Shown here: positions 17,625-60,962 of the stretch, one piece after another
How positions within the stretch are numbered: position 1 is the stretch's first letter
Layout of the letters: each line of letters opens with the position of its first letter
IMG/VR virus record: IMGVR_UViG_2974625740_000001
Location: 19,220 to 83,219 of that record
Length of the DNA stretch: 64,000 nucleotides
Source: a virus
Taxonomy: Duplodnaviria; Caudoviricetes
Strand: one strand, 5' to 3'
Position numbers and translations under genes: made by a program
The notes under the pieces: generated by a model
What the model was told of the DNA's origin: nothing
Databases searched by the model: none
What the model saw: only the letters and a program-made list of their open reading frames with translations

Positions 17625-17982
17625 CGCCCGGGTAACCCCCAGGGGTAACGGCGCAGGGTGTTACCCCCGCCGTTACCCCCCCTGACCTTAGCAACTCCGA
17701 GTAATCACATTTCAGGGGGGTAACACCCGCGAAAGGTGGGGGGTAACGGTCCGAAGAGGGGGTGTCGTTACCCCTACCGTTACCCATGAGCCAACCTTTT
17801 ATTACTGCCGAGTAACCCCCTCTGACCGGCCAGGCTTTTTTCTACAATAATCACACTTTAATAGGGGGGTAACGGGGGTAACACCCCCCGGGGGGTGTGG
17901 CTCAGGGCGTGTGCCGCTCGACTACTCCCCGTTACCGTTCCCCCATACCTGCGCCGCGCACTCCAGCCGCCGTTACCCCCCT
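17625..17982. repeat. origin-like iteron array 1
   Basis: About 13 GGGTAAC/GTTACCC copies in both orientations around an AT-rich core (ttttttctacaataatcacactttaata); directly after the primase/helicase. Confidence 0.75.
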
Positions 17983-37856: not shown

Positions 37857-37885
37857 ATTAAATCACGGCCTTGTCGACCGCGCAA
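37857..37885 (-). promoter_or_regulatory. dyad promoter, class I
   Basis: TTGCGC-N17-TTTAAT-TGAATTA. Confidence 0.75.
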
Positions 37886-46507: not shown

Positions 46508-46520
46508 ATCCCCAACCCAG

Positions 46521-46536
46521 TGTGACGAGCGTCACA
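46521..46536. promoter_or_regulatory. CRP-like box
   Basis: TGTGA-cgagcg-TCACA. Confidence 0.55.
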
Positions 46537-46567
46537 CCTCGAGAGTTTACCGTCGCACCATGCCCAC

Positions 46568-46597
46568 TTGTCGAAGGAGCAATCCCCATGATAAGAT
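46568..46597 (+). promoter_or_regulatory. dyad promoter, class II (transfer module)
   Basis: TTGTCG-N18-TAAGAT, TTG-N9-CAA. Confidence 0.7.
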
Positions 46598-46650
46598 GGT
46601 AATCCACCCGGTGCGGAAGCACCGGCCCTAAACTGATAGAGGTGAATCCG

Positions 46651-47922
46651 ATGGCGGAGAGGAAGCAGGCTCCCGTGAGTGACCCGGTTGAGCCGCGCAC
46701 CCGCCGGGGTCGCCGCAAGCTGGACGACGTTGCGGCCGAGGCAGCGCGCACCGCTGCCCGTACCACCGGCAAGGCCACCGCTGCCAAGACGGCGGCACGC
46801 ACCAAAACGGCCCTGCTCACCGAGCAGGAGAAGCAGGCGCAGGTCATCGCGCGACAGAAGGAGCGCAAGGCCAAGGAGCGCAAGGAGCGGAACGCACGGC
46901 GCTGGGCCGACTTCAAGGTTAAGGCCGCGTCGTTCGGTCGCACCGCGATGATCGTCGGTCCCATCACCGCGCCGATGTCGATCGCCTGGACCGGCCAGAT
47001 CGGGTTCGCCCAGGGCATTCTCAAGTGGCCGTTCGCTGGCGGCGTGATGTACGCGGCGGCTTACGAGCTGTCGATCATCTTCTGCGCCTGGATGTACCAC
47101 GAGGCACGCAAGGACGGCGACAGCGGGACGTACTACCGCGCGCTTACCTGGATGTTCGCCGTGGCCAACGGCGTGCAGCAGTGGTGGCACTGGGCCGACG
47201 ACTGGAAGGCAACGCCCCGATCGGTCACGTACTCGGTCATGACGGCGGTCGGCATCCTGATCTGGGAGGCGTACGCCAAGCTGATCCACCGCCGGAAGCT
47301 GCGCGCGGACGGCCGGATCTCGAACCCGCGACCCCGGATCAACCTGGTGCGCTGGCTGCGCTACCCCCGGATCTCGTTCACCGCGTGGAGCGGATCGATC
47401 CGGCACAGCTTCGACGACTTCAACGACATGTGGATCTGGGCCGAGGTCGAGCGCGAGGGCAAGCAGACCCGACGCAACAAGGTCAAGGAGCTGCGCGCGG
47501 AGGTCAAGGACCTGAAGGCGCAACTGGCCGACCTGACCGACCCGAAGAGGGCCAAGGTGATCAAGGCCGAGGTCGAGCGCGTAGTGACCCCGGACCCGGC
47601 ACCCGTCGCGCCGGACCCCAAGCCCATCGACCCCGGACCCCGCCCGGAGCTGGAGGCCCCCAAGGAGGCCGACCCCGGATCTCCGGAGGCCAACCCGGGT
47701 GACGCCGATCACAGCTTCGAGCCGACCGACGCCGAGATCCAGGCTCTTCAGGAGATGGTCGAGGCCGACCAGCGGCTGAACCGCGAGAACGTCATGGCGT
47801 ACATGCGGGACGACGACAACCGCCACCGCCTGGGCCAGCCGGAGGGCATCGCGACCAAGCGCGCTGCTCTGGTTGCCAAGTGGGGACGGGACAACTACTC
47901 GAAGATCAAGGCGGTTAGCTGA
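46651..47922 (+). CDS. DUF2637-like (Spd/transfer) membrane protein with a coiled coil
   Basis: 4 TM core (YAAAYELSII...WMFAVANGV...EAY); RPRINLVRWLRYP; Pro-rich linker. Confidence 0.65.
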   Translation: MAERKQAPVSDPVEPRTRRGRRKLDDVAAEAARTAARTTGKATAAKTAARTKTALLTEQEKQAQVIARQKERKAKERKERNARRWADFKVKAASFGRTAMIVGPITAPMSIAWTGQIGFAQGILKWPFAGGVMYAAAYELSIIFCAWMYHEARKDGDSGTYYRALTWMFAVANGVQQWWHWADDWKATPRSVTYSVMTAVGILIWEAYAKLIHRRKLRADGRISNPRPRINLVRWLRYPRISFTAWSGSIRHSFDDFNDMWIWAEVEREGKQTRRNKVKELRAEVKDLKAQLADLTDPKRAKVIKAEVERVVTPDPAPVAPDPKPIDPGPRPELEAPKEADPGSPEANPGDADHSFEPTDAEIQALQEMVEADQRLNRENVMAYMRDDDNRHRLGQPEGIATKRAALVAKWGRDNYSKIKAVS

Positions 47923-48200
47923 TGCGCACGTTCTACTGGCTCGCGGTGTTCGGGACGGCCGAGGTCGTCCCGGTTCCGCAACCCGTCCCCCAGGGTGACG
48001 ACCCGCTTTCGATCAACCAGGTGTTCGGGCAGCGCGTGACCCGCTCGGGCACCGTGGACATCGCCGAGGACCAGCCGACGGACGAGGTCATCAAGGGCAT
48101 CGTCGCGGGGTGCAAGGGCAGCGGGGGCGTCCACGCCGACGCTCTGTTGCTCGGGATCACGCTTTTGCCGAACGTCCTGGTTCCCGGTTACGGAACGTAA
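47922..48200 (+). CDS. hypothetical protein of the transfer module
   Basis: Stop/start overlap. Confidence 0.6.
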   Translation: MRTFYWLAVFGTAEVVPVPQPVPQGDDPLSINQVFGQRVTRSGTVDIAEDQPTDEVIKGIVAGCKGSGGVHADALLLGITLLPNVLVPGYGT

Positions 48201-48282
48201 GTGTTGCACGCCACAGTCACAGCCGTGACACCCCCCTCCTGTCGGCTTCCTTGGCCGGTGGGAGGGGGTCCCGAGGACCCGA

Positions 48283-48318
48283 GTCACAATCACAGTCACG
48301 ATCACAGTCACAGTCGAC
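48283..48318. repeat. 6-bp tandem repeat (RTCACR) x6
   Basis: gtcaca atcaca gtcacg atcaca gtcaca gtcgac. Confidence 0.8.
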
Positions 48319-48340
48319 GATAACAGGAGGTGACAGACAG

Positions 48341-50065
48341 ATGGCGGACGCCAAGGCAACAGAAGCGGAAAAGGTCGACACGTCGGCTGCGCCGGAGCCC
48401 GAGAAGGTATCTCCCGGGGCCTCGGAGGGCGCGGCCGGTCCTGAGGCCCCCGCCACTGCCCCCAGTGGCTCCCGTGGGCCGTCCCGGGCCAGGACGAGGG
48501 GCCTCCCGGCGGCACCCACAGCCGTAGCCACGGTGAACACCATCGCGGTCACCAGCGCTGCGGCTGCCAAGGCAGGCACTCCGGCGCTGGGCGTCGCGGT
48601 TGCGGTTGCCGAGGTCGTTGGCCTGGCCGCTCTCGGCCTCAGCCAGCGTCGCAAGGTCAAGCGCAACAACCGCGCTCGGCAGTTGCGCGAGCAGGCTCGC
48701 CAGCGCGGTCTCGGTCAGTCGCCGACGTCGCTCCGCTCGGGTCGCTGGACGCCCTCGGGTTCCGGGTCCGGCGGTGGGTCGCGCCGAAACAACGGGTCGG
48801 GATCGACCAACAACCGGGGCGGTGGCGGCACTCGACCGACCGGGCCGAGGTCTGTCAATACCGGGTCCCGATCGACCCCCACGCGGTCCGGGTCTGGAGG
48901 TCCGGGCACCGGAGGAGGTCGGCACCGCCGGAACAACGGGTCCGGATCGGGCGGAGGTCGAGGTCTGCTCGACCGCAAGCGCCGGAACGGATCGGGGTCC
49001 GGGTCCGGATCGGGCGGATCGACCTCCCCCAGGTCGAGGCGGCTGAATCGGCAGAATCAGAGGTCGGGCAACAACGGATCTGGATCGAACCGACACCAGA
49101 ACCGGACCCCCACGCTGTTCAGCAAGCCGGGTCAGCCGAGTCGGCTCCGGCAGGCGATCGGACCCCGACCCGCTGGCCAGCGTCGAGGTGGCCTGATCCG
49201 GAACGGCAATGGTCAGCGACGCCGACCTTTCGCCGCGATCGGCCGAGGGGTCGGTCACGTCCGCAACGGTGGACGTCGGATCGGGCGCGGTGTGGTTCGG
49301 GCTGCTGGCCGGATCAACCGAGCCGCGAGGGCGGTCGGCCGAGGTGCGCGCAGGGTCTGGAACGCTCGGCCGACCAGGGCCGCGCGACGTTGGACCATCG
49401 GCAGTTTGCGGAGGGCCTGGGGCATCCTGGGTCCGGCGGTCGGCGCGGTTCTGGCTGGCGTTGGCGCAGCGGTCCGGCGTCGAGGTTGGCGAGGTATCTG
49501 GACCGCGATGACCACCACCTGGGGGCGACTGCGCGCCAGGTGGGGACCGAAGAACGGCAAGCACGCAAAGGCGGCAGCAGCAGCAACGCCACCGCCCCCG
49601 GTAACACCCGCAACAACGATCAAGCGACCGGCTCACATGATCGGCGCAACTCCGTCCGCAACTGGCGGACCGACTGGACTCACTGGAGGTAACAGCATGG
49701 CTATGGCACGAATCATCGAGCAGTCGCGTGAGATGGTCGGCGCGGCGATGATGTACAACCCCGACGAGGGGATGATGCAGATCGGCAACGACATCGCGTC
49801 GATCGAAGAGGTCCTGCTCAACGTCGCCACCGCGATTCAGGCGATGACCCGGCAGGTGCAGGAGGGCGAGACCCCGATGCACCCTGCGATCGTGGACAAG
49901 GTCAAGGCCATCCACGGTGGCATCGTCAACCTGTCGCAGGAGGCGAAGGAGCTGAAGCCCGCGTTCGAGAACCTGCACAACGTGGACATCAACCGCATTC
50001 GCAACCCGCGACCGGGCGAGCAGCGGTGGGACCTGTCCGCCAACCGCGACTACGTCGGCCGATAG
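48341..50065 (+). CDS. TraA-like plasmid transfer protein
   Basis: RBS AGGAGG; TM segment, Gly/Ser/Arg-rich disordered region, helical C-domain (YNPDEGM...H.VDINRIRNPR..E..WD) as in Streptomyces plasmid/AICE tra operons. Confidence 0.6.
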   Translation: MADAKATEAEKVDTSAAPEPEKVSPGASEGAAGPEAPATAPSGSRGPSRARTRGLPAAPTAVATVNTIAVTSAAAAKAGTPALGVAVAVAEVVGLAALGLSQRRKVKRNNRARQLREQARQRGLGQSPTSLRSGRWTPSGSGSGGGSRRNNGSGSTNNRGGGGTRPTGPRSVNTGSRSTPTRSGSGGPGTGGGRHRRNNGSGSGGGRGLLDRKRRNGSGSGSGSGGSTSPRSRRLNRQNQRSGNNGSGSNRHQNRTPTLFSKPGQPSRLRQAIGPRPAGQRRGGLIRNGNGQRRRPFAAIGRGVGHVRNGGRRIGRGVVRAAGRINRAARAVGRGARRVWNARPTRAARRWTIGSLRRAWGILGPAVGAVLAGVGAAVRRRGWRGIWTAMTTTWGRLRARWGPKNGKHAKAAAAATPPPPVTPATTIKRPAHMIGATPSATGGPTGLTGGNSMAMARIIEQSREMVGAAMMYNPDEGMMQIGNDIASIEEVLLNVATAIQAMTRQVQEGETPMHPAIVDKVKAIHGGIVNLSQEAKELKPAFENLHNVDINRIRNPRPGEQRWDLSANRDYVGR

Positions 50066-50078
50066 GAGGCTACGCACC

Positions 50079-52175
50079 ATGGGTAAGGTAATCGACTGGG
50101 ACGCTGGGCACGGTCCCGTCACGGGCACGCTCAACGCGGCGTATTCAGCGCTGGGCGTTGCTGCGGTCGGCCATGAGGCCGGGTTGCCTCCCGTCTGGGC
50201 CCTGGGTGCATCCGCTGTGGGTGCGCTCGGGGCCGGAATCGCGGGGGCATCAGCCGAGGAGCCGCTTAGCAAGGGCGCGATCCTTGCGCGCACGGGCGGC
50301 TGGCTGGCGGGTGGCGGCTGGGTGACCTACGCGCTGACAACCGACACGATCTGGTCGTGGTCGGTCATCGGACCGCTGGCGGCGTGTACGTGCGGTTTCG
50401 CCAGCCTGGCCGGAGCGATCGGCCGGAAGCGACGTCGCCAGCTTGAGCGCGAAGAGCGCGCGTTCATGGCGCTGACCCGCACGCGCATCGGCCTGGAGTG
50501 GGTCGCGCGCATTGAGCGGGTGTGCGGCATCAAGGGGTGCGTGGTCGAGGGCGTCGAGCAGTGGGTCGACGAGAACGGCAACGAGACCGGGGCCGGATAC
50601 GACCTCGAAATCCTGATGCCCGAGGGCGGTGCGAACTGGCGTCAGCTCGCCGGAGCCAACGAGCAGTTGGCCTCAGACGCCGACCTGCCCGAGGGGTGTG
50701 GCGTCGAGGTGTTCAGCGGCACCTCGCGCCGTCGCGCCATCATCAAGGTGCAGCTGGTCAACAACATGCTGAGCGAAGACCAGGAGGTGCCGCTGGATGC
50801 GTCGCCGCTCGACTTCAACGATTTCTTCGACATCGGCAAGCTGCGTGACGGCGGTGTCGCCAAGATCCACATTCGCGAGTTCTCCGCGATGCTGGTCGGC
50901 GCGAAGCGAACCGGTAAGACGAACCAGCTCCTTGCGATCATCACACGACTGCTCCGGATGCCCAACCTGCGGGTGTGGGTGATCGACTTCAACGGGGGTG
51001 GCGTCGCCCTTCAGTGGCTGCGCGCGTGGGAAGCCCTCGGGAAGCCTGGACGGCCTCCGATCGACTGGGTGGCCGCCGACGTCGACGAGGCCGCCCGGAT
51101 GGCCAACGCGGCTGTCCGCGTGGCCAAGGCACGCAAGGTCGAGTACCAGCAGCTCATGGCTGAGGCTGACACCGACCTGCTGCCGCTTACCGCCGAAATC
51201 CCGGGCATCCTCATCATCACCGACGAGGGGGCCGAGGTCTACGCGAACCCCAAGCACCGGGTTGCAGCTGAGCCGATGAAGGAGGTCCTTCGGATCGCTG
51301 GCGCGTCCGGCGTGAACCAGCTCAACTGCTTCTTGCGAGGCACCGCCGACACGACGGGCGACACGATCATCAAGAGCCAGTCGACCGTGCGCATCGGCAT
51401 GCGGATGTCGGACGAGCAGGAGATGTCGTACCTACTCGGCTGGCGTTCCGGCGTCACCCCGGCGGACATGCCCGAGCAGGGGTTCGGCGCGCTGTCGATG
51501 GACGAGGCCAAACCGGCGCAGATCTTCAGGGGGTGGCGGGTCAAGCCGAGCCACATCAAGTGGTTCGTCGAGCACACGGCCGGATATCGCCAGAACGAGG
51601 CGTTCGACGAGGTCAGCTTGAAGGCGATGGGCGAGGTCTACGCCACCCGCTGGGAGCGTGCCGAGTTCGTGTTCAACTCGGCTGTCCCCGCTCCCCAGGT
51701 GACCACGACGATGGTCCTCGACAAGGACGACGAGGGCGAGAGCTGGGGTGCCAGCGTCGACCCCAAGCAGGCGTCCGAGAACCTCTCGAAGGCCATCGAA
51801 GAGGCCAAGGCGGCACGGGGCACCCCGGAGCAGTCCGAGGCCGACGAATGGGCCTCCCTGGTGCAGGGCGGGGGTCTCTCCGACCTGGAGCAGTACTCGT
51901 TCGACAACCCCCCGCCGGAGCCGCCCCCGATCGACCCGGACGACCCCCAGTCGGACGAGCAGGAGGCCAACGACATCAGGGACGTCGCGGTCGGCATGGT
52001 CAAGGCCATGGGGTCCGAGGGAATCACCGTGGCTGAGGTCGTCAAGGCCCTTCAGCGTCAGTACGGTGACGACGCCCCGGTCCGCGAGACCGTGTTCCGC
52101 TGGTTCAAGAAGGACGACCGGATCGAGAAGATCGGCCACGGTCGATACGCCTGGAAGCAGGAGGAGGGCAACTGA
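50079..52175 (+). CDS. traB: TraB-like FtsK/SpoIIIE conjugative dsDNA translocase
   Basis: N-terminal TM helices, Walker A GAKRTGKT, Walker B IITDE, RIGMR, C-terminal winged helix (VRETVFRWF..IEKIGHGRY). Confidence 0.8.
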   Translation: MGKVIDWDAGHGPVTGTLNAAYSALGVAAVGHEAGLPPVWALGASAVGALGAGIAGASAEEPLSKGAILARTGGWLAGGGWVTYALTTDTIWSWSVIGPLAACTCGFASLAGAIGRKRRRQLEREERAFMALTRTRIGLEWVARIERVCGIKGCVVEGVEQWVDENGNETGAGYDLEILMPEGGANWRQLAGANEQLASDADLPEGCGVEVFSGTSRRRAIIKVQLVNNMLSEDQEVPLDASPLDFNDFFDIGKLRDGGVAKIHIREFSAMLVGAKRTGKTNQLLAIITRLLRMPNLRVWVIDFNGGGVALQWLRAWEALGKPGRPPIDWVAADVDEAARMANAAVRVAKARKVEYQQLMAEADTDLLPLTAEIPGILIITDEGAEVYANPKHRVAAEPMKEVLRIAGASGVNQLNCFLRGTADTTGDTIIKSQSTVRIGMRMSDEQEMSYLLGWRSGVTPADMPEQGFGALSMDEAKPAQIFRGWRVKPSHIKWFVEHTAGYRQNEAFDEVSLKAMGEVYATRWERAEFVFNSAVPAPQVTTTMVLDKDDEGESWGASVDPKQASENLSKAIEEAKAARGTPEQSEADEWASLVQGGGLSDLEQYSFDNPPPEPPPIDPDDPQSDEQEANDIRDVAVGMVKAMGSEGITVAEVVKALQRQYGDDAPVRETVFRWFKKDDRIEKIGHGRYAWKQEEGN

Positions 52176-52660
52176 TGGAGATCAACGCGTTGTTGGCCGT
52201 GTTCGTCGCTCTGTTCGTCGGGCACAGCGTGGCCGACCACTGGGTGCAGACCTCGTGTCAGGCCGTTGAGAAAGCGTACGGAGCCCCGGGCACGTCGAGG
52301 GAGCTTCGACGTCGCGGACAGCTCGCTTGCCTGCGGCACGTCCTCACGCTGACGGCCACGAAGTGGCTGCTCGTGCTGGTCGTCGTGGTCCCGTTTCACG
52401 TGAAACTGAACTGGTGGCAGGCCCTCGCTGGCCTCACCCTCGACGCCGTGTCGCACTACTGGGCCGACCGTCGATGGACCCTGGAGGAACTGGCGCGGTA
52501 CGTCGGCAAGGGCGAGTTCTACGACCAGGGCACGGACCTGGTCGACTGCGCTGGCGAGAAGCGTCCCCACATCGGCACCGGTCGGTACGCGCTCGACCAG
52601 AGCTGGCACCACCTGTGGTTGCTGATCGGCGCGTGGATCGCCACGGTCCCACTGCCCTGA
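52175..52660 (+). CDS. DUF3307-like membrane protein
   Basis: HSVADHWVQT, SHYWADRR, LDQSWH. Confidence 0.7.
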   Translation: MEINALLAVFVALFVGHSVADHWVQTSCQAVEKAYGAPGTSRELRRRGQLACLRHVLTLTATKWLLVLVVVVPFHVKLNWWQALAGLTLDAVSHYWADRRWTLEELARYVGKGEFYDQGTDLVDCAGEKRPHIGTGRYALDQSWHHLWLLIGAWIATVPLP

Positions 52661-52670
52661 CCCGACACAC

Positions 52671-52707
52671 GACGAGGCCCCCGCCACTCCCCGGCGGGGG
52701 CCTCGTC
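52671..52707. terminator. bidirectional stem-loop
   Basis: gacgaggcccccgcc / ggcgggggcctcgtc. Confidence 0.7.
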
Positions 52708-52712
52708 TGTGT

Positions 52713-53015
52713 TCAGTCCATCAGCATCGCCGCGACCAGCTCAGCCGGGATGGTGTTGGCCTCGATCGCGTCGCGCCACTCCTGGTCGATTCGGGCGACC
52801 TCTTCAGCGTCGGCCCACCAGGCGATGTTCTTGACCTCGCCGTCGACCACGCGCTGCCCGGTCCCGAGGACCTTGTCCCCGACCGGCTCCTTGGCGAACA
52901 GCCGGACCAGGTCGGTCGGCCGCTGCGGCAGGACCGGGAACCGGACCCCCACGATCTCGACGACCGCGAGACGGCTGTCGATGTTGCCCAGGACGAACTT
53001 CACGCGCTCCGTCAT
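52713..53015 (-). CDS. hypothetical protein
   Basis: RBS GAGGGAG; own promoter. Confidence 0.7.
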   Translation of the reverse strand: MTERVKFVLGNIDSRLAVVEIVGVRFPVLPQRPTDLVRLFAKEPVGDKVLGTGQRVVDGEVKNIAWWADAEEVARIDQEWRDAIEANTIPAELVAAMLMD

Positions 53016-54523: not shown

Positions 54524-54539
54524 TGTGACGCAGGTCACA
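54524..54539. promoter_or_regulatory. CRP-like box
   Basis: TGTGA-cgcagg-TCACA. Confidence 0.55.
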
Positions 54540-55088: not shown

Positions 55089-55155
55089 GGCCGACCCCGG
55101 CGGGGGGCGACGAGCCCCCCGCCCAACGTGGCACAGGTCACATCGCACAGGGTAC

Positions 55156-55786: not shown

Positions 55787-55963
55787 ATGAGCCGCAAGGC
55801 GATTCGCCCGAGCAACCGGGTGCAGGTCGGCGCGTCCCAGACCGGGCGCGTGGTGATGACCGGGAAGCACAAGCAGGGCGGGACCTGGGTCCGGACCTAC
55901 AAGGTCCGTTTCGACACCGACGCCATCCGCACCGTGCGCGGGCACCTCGTCCAGCCGGTGTGA
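55787..55963 (+). CDS. 58-aa basic SH3-like protein
   Basis: MSRKAIRPSNRVQVG...YKVRFD; RBS GAGG. Confidence 0.55.
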   Translation: MSRKAIRPSNRVQVGASQTGRVVMTGKHKQGGTWVRTYKVRFDTDAIRTVRGHLVQPV

Positions 55964-55974
55964 CGCAGGTCACA
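55959..55974. promoter_or_regulatory. CRP-like box
   Basis: TGTGA-cgcagg-TCACA, identical to 54524-54539. Confidence 0.55.
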
Positions 55975-60597: not shown

Positions 60598-60962
60598 CCG
60601 GGGGGTAACGGCAGGGGGTACAGGGGGGTACGCTGCAGGCCGTTACCCCCACTGTTACCCCTCTGACCTTTGTAACTGTGGGTGACGAAATTTAGCAGGG
60701 GTAACGGCGCTCCAGGGTGGGGGGTAACGGCCCCGAAATGCCCTGCTGTTACCCCTGCTGTTACCCCTCGGCCAAAGTGCAATTACCGACCAGTAACCCC
60801 CTCTGACCGGCAGATTTCTACTTTTTCTACATACAATTTTAATAGGGGGGTAACGGGGGTAACGGCCCCGTACCCTCCGTGGCCCAGGTGGGGGGCCATG
60901 ATTACGCTCCGTGGTCGTCCCCCCGTAGCTGCCCCGCGCACCCCGGTGGCCGTTACCCCCCC
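60598..60962. repeat. origin-like iteron array 2 (homologous to 17625-17982)
   Basis: Same order of GGGTAAC/GTTACCC copies; identical 20-nt and 26-nt blocks flanking an AT-rich core. Confidence 0.8.

Follow-up and report, generated by a model that had tools for sequence, protein, structure and literature searches.

Why would a tailed phage carry, inside its own genome, genes of the kind that plasmids use to pump double-stranded DNA (dsDNA) from cell to cell? The question is raised by a five-gene operon, here called g1 to g5, in the right-hand 64 kb (the window) of the 83,219-bp IMG/VR virus record IMGVR_UViG_2974625740_000001. Streptomyces grow as connected, compartmented hyphae; TraB is the single essential transfer protein of the plasmid pSVH1, and Spd proteins direct intramycelial spread. 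A sequence-only reading of the window had proposed that the operon is a Streptomyces-type conjugation module with which the phage could also move its genome between hyphae. We incline, with modest conviction, to the view that the operon is a dsDNA transfer and spreading module of the type found in plasmids and integrative and conjugative elements of actinomycetes (AICEs), and that it is now a stable, self-regulated part of the phage lineage. Taken alone, its identity as an actinomycete-type dsDNA transfer module is, judged from sequence, highly probable; a function in spread, taken alone, is on our analysis finely poised, with doubt slightly ahead.

A five-gene operon shared by Hiyaavirus phages

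The operon region (46568-52707, plus strand) holds five open reading frames (ORFs) spanning 46651-52660. It is 98% identical to the corresponding DNA of Streptomyces phage Spocter, whose isolation host was S. lividans, and 83% and 79% identical to that of Keanu and Galactica (genus Hiyaavirus), so that the module is present in 3/3 of the sequenced relatives. Spocter is annotated as a siphovirus with portal, capsid, tape measure and endolysin genes, and also with DNA polymerase I, primase, helicase and PurA-like and PurB-like genes. That annotation contains neither an integrase nor a repressor or partition gene, and the Pfam families Phage_integrase, Resolvase and ParB_N had no match in the whole 83-kb record. 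By its gene content the phage is apparently non-temperate, with a PurZ0-type aminoadenine (Z-base) gene set. A search of bacterial isolate assemblies for close relatives returned a metagenome contig and a phage-only assembly. Our literature search found no papers on Hiyaavirus phages and, in the literature searched, no study of the module in Spocter, Keanu, Galactica or the three further phage carriers described below (P1312, NBC_01177 and the G001 prophage).

The sequence-only reading had described a single operon with its own dyad promoter, five genes and a terminal hairpin, and all of these elements are in place. The promoter and leader (46568-46625, plus strand) consist of a -35 element (TTGTCG, 46568-46573), an 18-nt spacer, a -10 element (TAAGAT, 46592-46597) and a leader hairpin (CCGGTGC-ggaa-GCACCGG, 46608-46625). 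At the other end, a bidirectional terminator hairpin (52671-52707) with a 15-bp G+C stem (52671-52685 paired with 52693-52707) and a 7-nt loop separates g5 from a convergent minus-strand gene at 52713-53015. Genes g1 and g2, like g4 and g5, overlap by ATGA, and the gap between g3 and g4 is 13 nt. Frame-specific G+C clearly backs g1, g2, g4 and g5 (G+C at third codon positions, 0.87-0.90).

Generic sigma-70 and terminator scanners flagged neither the operon promoter nor the terminator, and we base the case for both on their conservation and on the motif that the phage itself uses. The promoter block hardly varies among the window, Spocter, Keanu and Galactica, in contrast to the surrounding intergenic DNA, and the terminator hairpin is kept in Keanu and Galactica with a changed loop. 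The phage consensus promoter, ACTTGCGC-N5-GCAAG-N4-TGATTTAAT-N2-AATTA, occurs in about 20 copies on both strands, each followed by a GGGGG...CCCCC (G+C) hairpin and a GGAGG ribosome-binding site. The operon promoter retains TTG-N9-CAA and the overall layout of this consensus, the rest having diverged. The earlier statement that the module uses the phage's own promoter motif is therefore accurate for the retained elements and too strong as a whole, the promoter being a diverged variant and no copy of the consensus.

About 30 nt upstream of the operon -35 element lies a perfect CRP-type dyad, TGTGA-N6-TCACA (46521-46536, within the 18-bp GTGTGACGagCGTCACAC at 46520-46537). The window has exact matches to it at three positions only (46521, 54524 and 55959), each of them upstream of a promoter, and with at most one mismatch allowed there are five matches against 1.24 expected. 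The dyad at 46521 is conserved in part in Keanu and Galactica. It is a probable regulator binding site, and because the exact boxes precede three promoters, the pattern suggests shared control of the transfer operon and some right-arm genes by a Crp-like regulator, which could come from host or phage.

The g4 translocase resembles TraB-type pumps in its predicted architecture

The gene g4 (50079-52175, plus strand) encodes a predicted TraB-type dsDNA translocase of 698 amino acids (aa). Its product matches PHROGs family phrog_31069, 'FtsK/SpoIIIE-like' (E 1e-102), and its orthologues in Spocter, Keanu and Galactica are labelled 'FtsK-like DNA translocase' in GenBank. An AlphaFold2 model built on 37 homologues (mean predicted local distance difference test, pLDDT, 83) places four transmembrane (TM) helices at 13-115, then a long helix, an alpha/beta domain (155-225), a RecA-like ATPase (250-505), a disordered linker and a C-terminal winged helix (627-692). 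The TM helices are predicted at 13-34, 38-58, 65-85 and 94-115, with hydropathy peaks at 39-57 and 96-114. Walker A spans G274-T281 and Walker B is D382-E383; G274, G279, K280, D382 and E383 are invariant in the 37 homologues. The winged helix is modelled as H627-647, H651-665, H669-678, E682-685 and E689-692 at a pLDDT of about 90, and the region gives a weak match to Pfam HTH_48 at 648-678. Some g4 relatives have an FtsK-gamma domain (PF09397).

Foldseek ranked TcpA, the conjugation coupling protein of pCW3, first among the matches to the g4 model (E 1e-15) and the FtsK motor next (E 1e-14), with EccC/EssC and HerA further down, and the g4 family profile also matched TcpA among the Protein Data Bank (PDB) sequences (E 9e-4). 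The model, the fold matches and the invariant Walker residues bear out the earlier description of a TraB with TM segments, FtsK ATPase and winged helix: as modelled, g4 shows all three of the parts by which a Streptomyces TraB-type pump can be recognised from sequence. This arrangement of membrane anchor, FtsK-like ATPase and C-terminal winged helix is shared with pSVH1 TraB and with pIJ101 Tra, which has FtsK_SpoIIIE and MarR-type helix-turn-helix domains.

Related modules occur in plasmids, AICE-like islands and other phages

The nearest relatives of g4 outside its own phage group lie on mobile elements. It is 34% identical to the pFQ12 translocase (E 2e-92), 35% identical to that of NBC_01177 (E 6e-120) and about 25% identical to pZL12.71c (E 8e-21). 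The g4 family profile scores pZL12.71c at 166 bits, pIJ101 Tra at 35, chromosomal FtsK at 12 and EccC at 9, and gives 16-26 bits to the four FtsK/SpoIIIE paralogues of about 500 aa in one Streptomyces genome. We built a tree of 22 rows by a quick tree search, with Shimodaira-Hasegawa-like approximate likelihood ratio test (SH-aLRT) values as the only measure of support and P1312 left out. One clade (SH-aLRT 99) unites g4, pFQ12, pZL12.71c, the chromosomal copies and the phage copies, and within it the Hiyaavirus copies join those of NBC_01177 and the G001 prophage (SH-aLRT 97). By tree and by profile score, g4 thus stands apart from the non-conjugative chromosomal FtsK and EccC and within a clade of plasmid, AICE and pZL12 proteins, in line with the sequence-only assignment.

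The subfamily is widespread among actinomycetes. A tblastn search of plasmids found g4-type sequences in 33 actinomycete plasmids, including Frankia pFQ12 (22 kb), Nocardiopsis and Actinomadura plasmids of 16-18 kb and several pZL12-sized replicons. Among 201 sampled Streptomyces species genomes, 37 contain a member (E<=1e-40), and many of the metagenomic relatives, at 47-92% identity, are full length.

Gene order is conserved along with sequence. In pFQ12, NBC_01177, pZL12 and the chromosomal copies, as in the phage, a multi-TM protein, a small ORF, a large protein, the translocase and a small protein follow one another. Because the operon is homologous to, and syntenic with, loci of plasmids, AICEs and pZL12, we identify it as a transfer module. 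The translocase always follows a g3-type gene, and a DUF2637 membrane protein in the SpdB2 position often precedes it as well. The closest non-phage relatives of the g3-g4 pair are in pFQ12 and AICE-like islands; these elements carry Rep and Int genes and, immediately behind the translocase, arrays of short repeats, whereas the phage has neither there. An Int-Rep-Tra triad defines AICEs (PMC3218068). One chromosomal copy adjoins RepAM/DUF3631 and a tyrosine integrase and so makes up this triad, another lies inside a prophage, 13 kb from a Terminase_6 gene, and a third sits in an island with host genes on either side within about 10 kb. HK97 capsid and portal families were sought beside five chromosomal copies, and none was nearby.

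The locus on pZL12 has the same order of membrane protein, g3-type protein, FtsK-like translocase and small protein, and it too stands inside the genome of a virion-forming tailed phage. According to work from 2010, relayed in PMC3583192, pZL12 transfer reportedly requires the major tra gene and two neighbours, and PMC4487206 describes pZL12 as a circular plasmid-prophage that has the partitioning genes ParA/ParB. The phage studied here differs in having no ParB, integrase or resolvase match and in having its own polymerase, primase and helicase, and protein identity is about 25%. The comparison with pIJ101 is looser: 35 bits only, no PF01580 match, no counterpart of g3, and a phage as the replicon. 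Nor did we find beside the phage module, unlike in TraB plasmids, a GntR-type repressor (TraR/KorA) or a clt, an array of short repeats that the translocase recognises and that usually lies at the 3' end of its gene or beyond it. The multi-TM companion and the small translationally coupled ORFs do resemble an spd operon (PMC4447253).

Phage carriers of a g3-g4-type pair are Spocter, Keanu, Galactica, Thermobifida phage P1312, NBC_01177 and a prophage of Streptomyces genome G001. P1312 and NBC_01177 encode recombinases, whereas the Hiyaavirus group shows none; the G001 copy is chromosomally integrated and presumed temperate. The replicon of Streptomyces sp. NBC_01177, deposited as 'plasmid unnamed1' (NZ_CP108596.1, circular, 51.7 kb), is a complete temperate siphophage genome with terminase, portal, HK97 capsid, tape measure and serine recombinase genes and the same transfer module; from its gene content it is likely a phage-plasmid or an excised prophage.

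A partner protein encoded upstream of the translocase

The gene g3 (48341-50065, plus strand) encodes a membrane protein of 574 aa with a TM segment at about 82-100, some 260 aa of Arg/Gly/Ser-rich basic low-complexity sequence, a second TM segment at about 360-378 and a C-terminal domain. This domain (window 49703-50062) is predicted to be all-helical, with about 115 aa, an AlphaFold2 pLDDT of 92 and a tail of the form H..D..R...PR.GE..WD. In an exhaustive HMMER search it was found in 328 representative clusters, and some proteins carry two or more copies. Neither Pfam, NCBIfam nor PHROGs returned a match to g3, the domain found no fold in the PDB at E 0.001, and in the ESM Atlas it matched unnamed clusters only. 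EsxB/WXG100-like helical hairpins came up at E of about 2, which we do not count as evidence, and a relationship of the domain to pIJ101 KilB or SpdB was rejected (hhalign probabilities <1%).

Each of the elements examined (pFQ12, NBC_01177, pZL12.72c and P1312_064) has a g3-type gene directly upstream of its translocase, and the domain is encoded at this position in 10/10 further chromosomal copies. The match of g3 to pZL12.72c has an E of 3e-6 and an hhalign probability of 97.5%. From this distribution, g3 is an obligate upstream partner of the g4 translocase subfamily, and its C-terminal domain is an undescribed candidate for a new component of actinomycete conjugation. The label 'TraA-like' given earlier to g3 does not hold, since we found no tie to any named TraA and its relatives are unnamed partners of the g4 subfamily; on pWTY27, unlike here, the name TraA belongs to the translocase itself.

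Frame-specific G+C is flat over most of g3, owing to its low-complexity sequence, and the Spocter annotation places a minus-strand gene (97) and a short plus-strand gene (98) at this locus. A minus-strand ORF (48308-50293) was considered in place of g3 and rejected. Because that ORF is broken in Keanu and Galactica, and the plus-strand ORF is colinear there with in-frame indels only and has a ratio of nonsynonymous to synonymous substitution (dN/dS) of about 0.35 along its whole length, we take g3 to be a real gene, and the minus-strand call in Spocter is probably wrong. Gene callers elsewhere often report g3 as its last ~120 codons only, missing the Arg/Gly/Ser stretch.

The other three genes

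The first gene, g1, encodes a membrane protein of 423 aa (46651-47922, plus strand, from ATG; an alternative GTG at 46642 gives 426 aa) with a charged N-terminal region, a hydrophobic core at about 100-290 and a C-terminal domain. It matches phrog_10376 (E 9e-10), and family members at 41-56% identity carry PF10935 (DUF2637). The core is 43-53% identical to large Streptomyces plasmid proteins encoded about 5 kb from a TraB-like gene. In NBC_01177, the DUF2637 protein in the module position of g1 is 66% identical to gp24 of VWB, one of two phages cited for SpdB2 homologues (PMC4447253). On these comparisons g1 appears to be a divergent DUF2637 member in the SpdB2 position, linked to SpdB2 itself only through VWB gp24 and PMC4447253; we found no relationship to pIJ101 SpdB. 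As to the earlier label 'DUF2637/Spd-like', the score of g1 itself against DUF2637 is sub-threshold (see below).

Translationally coupled to g1 by ATGA is g2 (47922-48200, plus strand), an ORF of 92 aa. It is weakly constrained (dN/dS 0.56-0.78) and has no family match in Pfam, PHROGs or NCBIfam; ORFs in the same position encode 85 aa in NBC_01177 and 76 aa in pFQ12. The last gene, g5 (52175-52660, plus strand), is coupled to g4 by ATGA and encodes a small membrane protein of 161 aa that matches phrog_2470, 'membrane protein' (E 3e-15). Its dN/dS is 0.15 against Keanu. Galactica lacks g5, and an 81.7-kb metagenomic relative keeps only 60 codons of it, which makes g5, on this distribution, a dispensable accessory member of the operon.

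The module is maintained in the phage lineage

All relatives have g1, g3 and g4 intact, under purifying selection (dN/dS 0.25-0.43), and g4 is conserved at 79-83% amino acid identity among them compared with 85-86% for DNA polymerase. The proposal that the module is domesticated, as opposed to a passenger AICE, agrees with its presence in all three sequenced relatives, with the purifying selection and with a conserved promoter that carries a phage signature. As had also been noted, no integrase or Rep gene adjoins it, and the record as a whole gave no integrase, resolvase or ParB match. The operon looks, by these comparisons, like a long-standing phage part rather than a passenger AICE.

Plasmid-type translocases are accompanied by short repeats in two of the related elements: in pFQ12 and in one AICE copy, an 8-10-mer occurs four times in the roughly 230 bp that follow the translocase stop codon. 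Strong repeat arrays are found at only two places in the window, the homologous arrays of GGGGTAACGG at 17642-17980 and 60602-60960. Each is about 350 bp long, with some 8-10 iterons in both orientations and an AT-rich spacer; the array at 17.6 kb adjoins primase and helicase genes and that at 60.6 kb lies in a gene-free gap near the right end. These arrays resemble origins and are the sole candidates seen for a clt. Repeats of GACCCGGA, the motif of the pSVH1 TraB site, were rejected as a clt. Their copies in the g3 low-complexity region (3 in the window, 5 in Keanu, none there in Galactica) are explained by Ser-Gly-Ser codons.

What the pump might do for the phage

If the module is a spreading system, the operon would be transcribed after infection from its own conserved promoter, possibly through a Crp-like regulator acting at TGTGA-N6-TCACA. 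Hexamers of g4 would insert into the membrane at cross-walls or sites of hyphal contact, their winged helix would pick out a repeated phage sequence, and ATP hydrolysis would drive unpackaged dsDNA of the phage into the next compartment or hypha, with g1 and g3 supplying a channel or wall-spanning part. A single infection could in this way be extended through the mycelium with no extracellular step. Such capsid-free spread of phage DNA from cell to cell is plausible, and it might bypass receptors and extracellular inhibitors; both are inference only. The fullest form of the proposal is more doubtful: that a PurZ0-type phage in which no lysogeny or plasmid-maintenance genes can be recognised pumps its replicating genome through cross-walls and into touching hyphae by means of a TraB/SpdB2-type machine and g3, and so achieves capsid-free spread from one adsorption, perhaps switched by a host Crp-like regulator.

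Were this true, a virulent virus of a multicellular bacterium would have a second, conjugation-like route of transmission. A virus moving between compartments as naked dsDNA would change views of plaque formation and of phage containment by development, and such movement would likewise bear on receptor-based resistance and secreted anti-phage molecules. pZL12 offers the one experimental precedent, in which transfer serves a plasmid state, whereas here no lysogeny or plasmid functions are visible. The presence of the module in a phage without visible lysogeny functions raises the question of whether the pump serves lytic infection itself.

Several points weigh against a spreading module of TraB type. 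A lytic phage kills the compartment in which it replicates, and the benefit of pumping DNA out of it is an argument and not an observation; the absence of lysogeny genes is itself defined by three Pfam families and the Spocter annotation. No clt-like repeat array was found after g4, where g5 sits instead. The matches of g1 to Pfam DUF2637 (E 1.2e-3, 19.3 bits against a cut-off of 22.8) and of g5 to DUF3307 (PF11750; E 1.4e-3, 19.1 bits against a cut-off of 23) are both sub-threshold. In the tree, FtsK, EccC, pIJ101 Tra and other paralogues fall outside the g4 clade in a deep order without resolution. pIJ101 Tra resembles g4 weakly (about 26% identity over 145 aa) and is about equally far from chromosomal FtsK and from the g4 family. 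On our analysis, the link of g4 to classic TraB proteins is more by architecture and context than by sequence. Lastly, Pfam FtsK_SpoIIIE (PF01580) has no match at E<0.1 in g4 or anywhere in the phage genome. Relatives of g4 match it at E 0.003-0.02, and given the fold result we attribute the missed match to the limited sensitivity of the model. Since the subfamily escapes PF01580, AICE surveys that rely on this family would miss such elements.

The explanation closest to a spreading module is that the pump acts within the infected mycelium only, driving phage genomes across closing sporulation or vegetative septa, in the manner of FtsK, SpoIIIE and SffA, into spores or adjacent compartments, with no transfer from hypha to hypha. 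The membrane anchor, FtsK-like motor and winged helix fit this equally well, the lack of an integrase or ParB match leaves no other recognisable route to persistence, and a possible Crp-type box would tie expression to host physiology. We nevertheless consider it improbable, because the module's closest relatives belong to plasmids, AICE-like islands and pZL12, for which intermycelial transfer is the known trait; it also overlaps with intramycelial spreading and differs from the reading we favour only in the target. Use of the module in competition, to keep out or take over resident plasmids, AICEs or superinfecting phages or to mobilise host DNA from a dying cell, seems to us less probable again. 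In PHROGs the g4 and g5 families come under the category 'moron, auxiliary metabolic gene and host takeover', and related elements, with which the module might interact, are common in Streptomyces, as the genome survey above shows. Scans with Pfam, PHROGs and NCBIfam, with PADLOC not searched, returned nothing defence-like, however, and a full plasmid-like gene set with a sequence-reading winged helix argues for the movement of specific DNA, most simply the phage's own.

The weak constraint on g2, the loss or truncation of g5 in relatives and the missing clt would also suit an inert passenger, or a decaying leftover, from an AICE or plasmid that an ancestor of the phage group had captured. Either is very unlikely, as g1, g3 and g4 are intact in all relatives, about as conserved as DNA polymerase and under the purifying selection described above, the promoter and terminator are conserved, and many metagenomic relatives are full length. 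An assembly chimera of phage and plasmid contigs deserves next to no credence. It is already refuted by three independently sequenced phages with the same arrangement and flanks, which recur in the 81.7-kb metagenomic contig; G+C is uniform across the junctions, and the operon promoter has phage-specific features. The mis-assembly that the sequence-only reading had raised as a concern is thereby answered.

Further copies of the regulatory motifs

Beyond the box upstream of the operon, the further exact CRP-type boxes lie at 54524-54539 and 55959-55974, and a half-conserved copy is found near 55130. Copies of the phage consensus promoter include those at 37862 (minus strand), 54577, 55179, 56020, 57334, 57747, 58213, 58580, 59135 and 59508.

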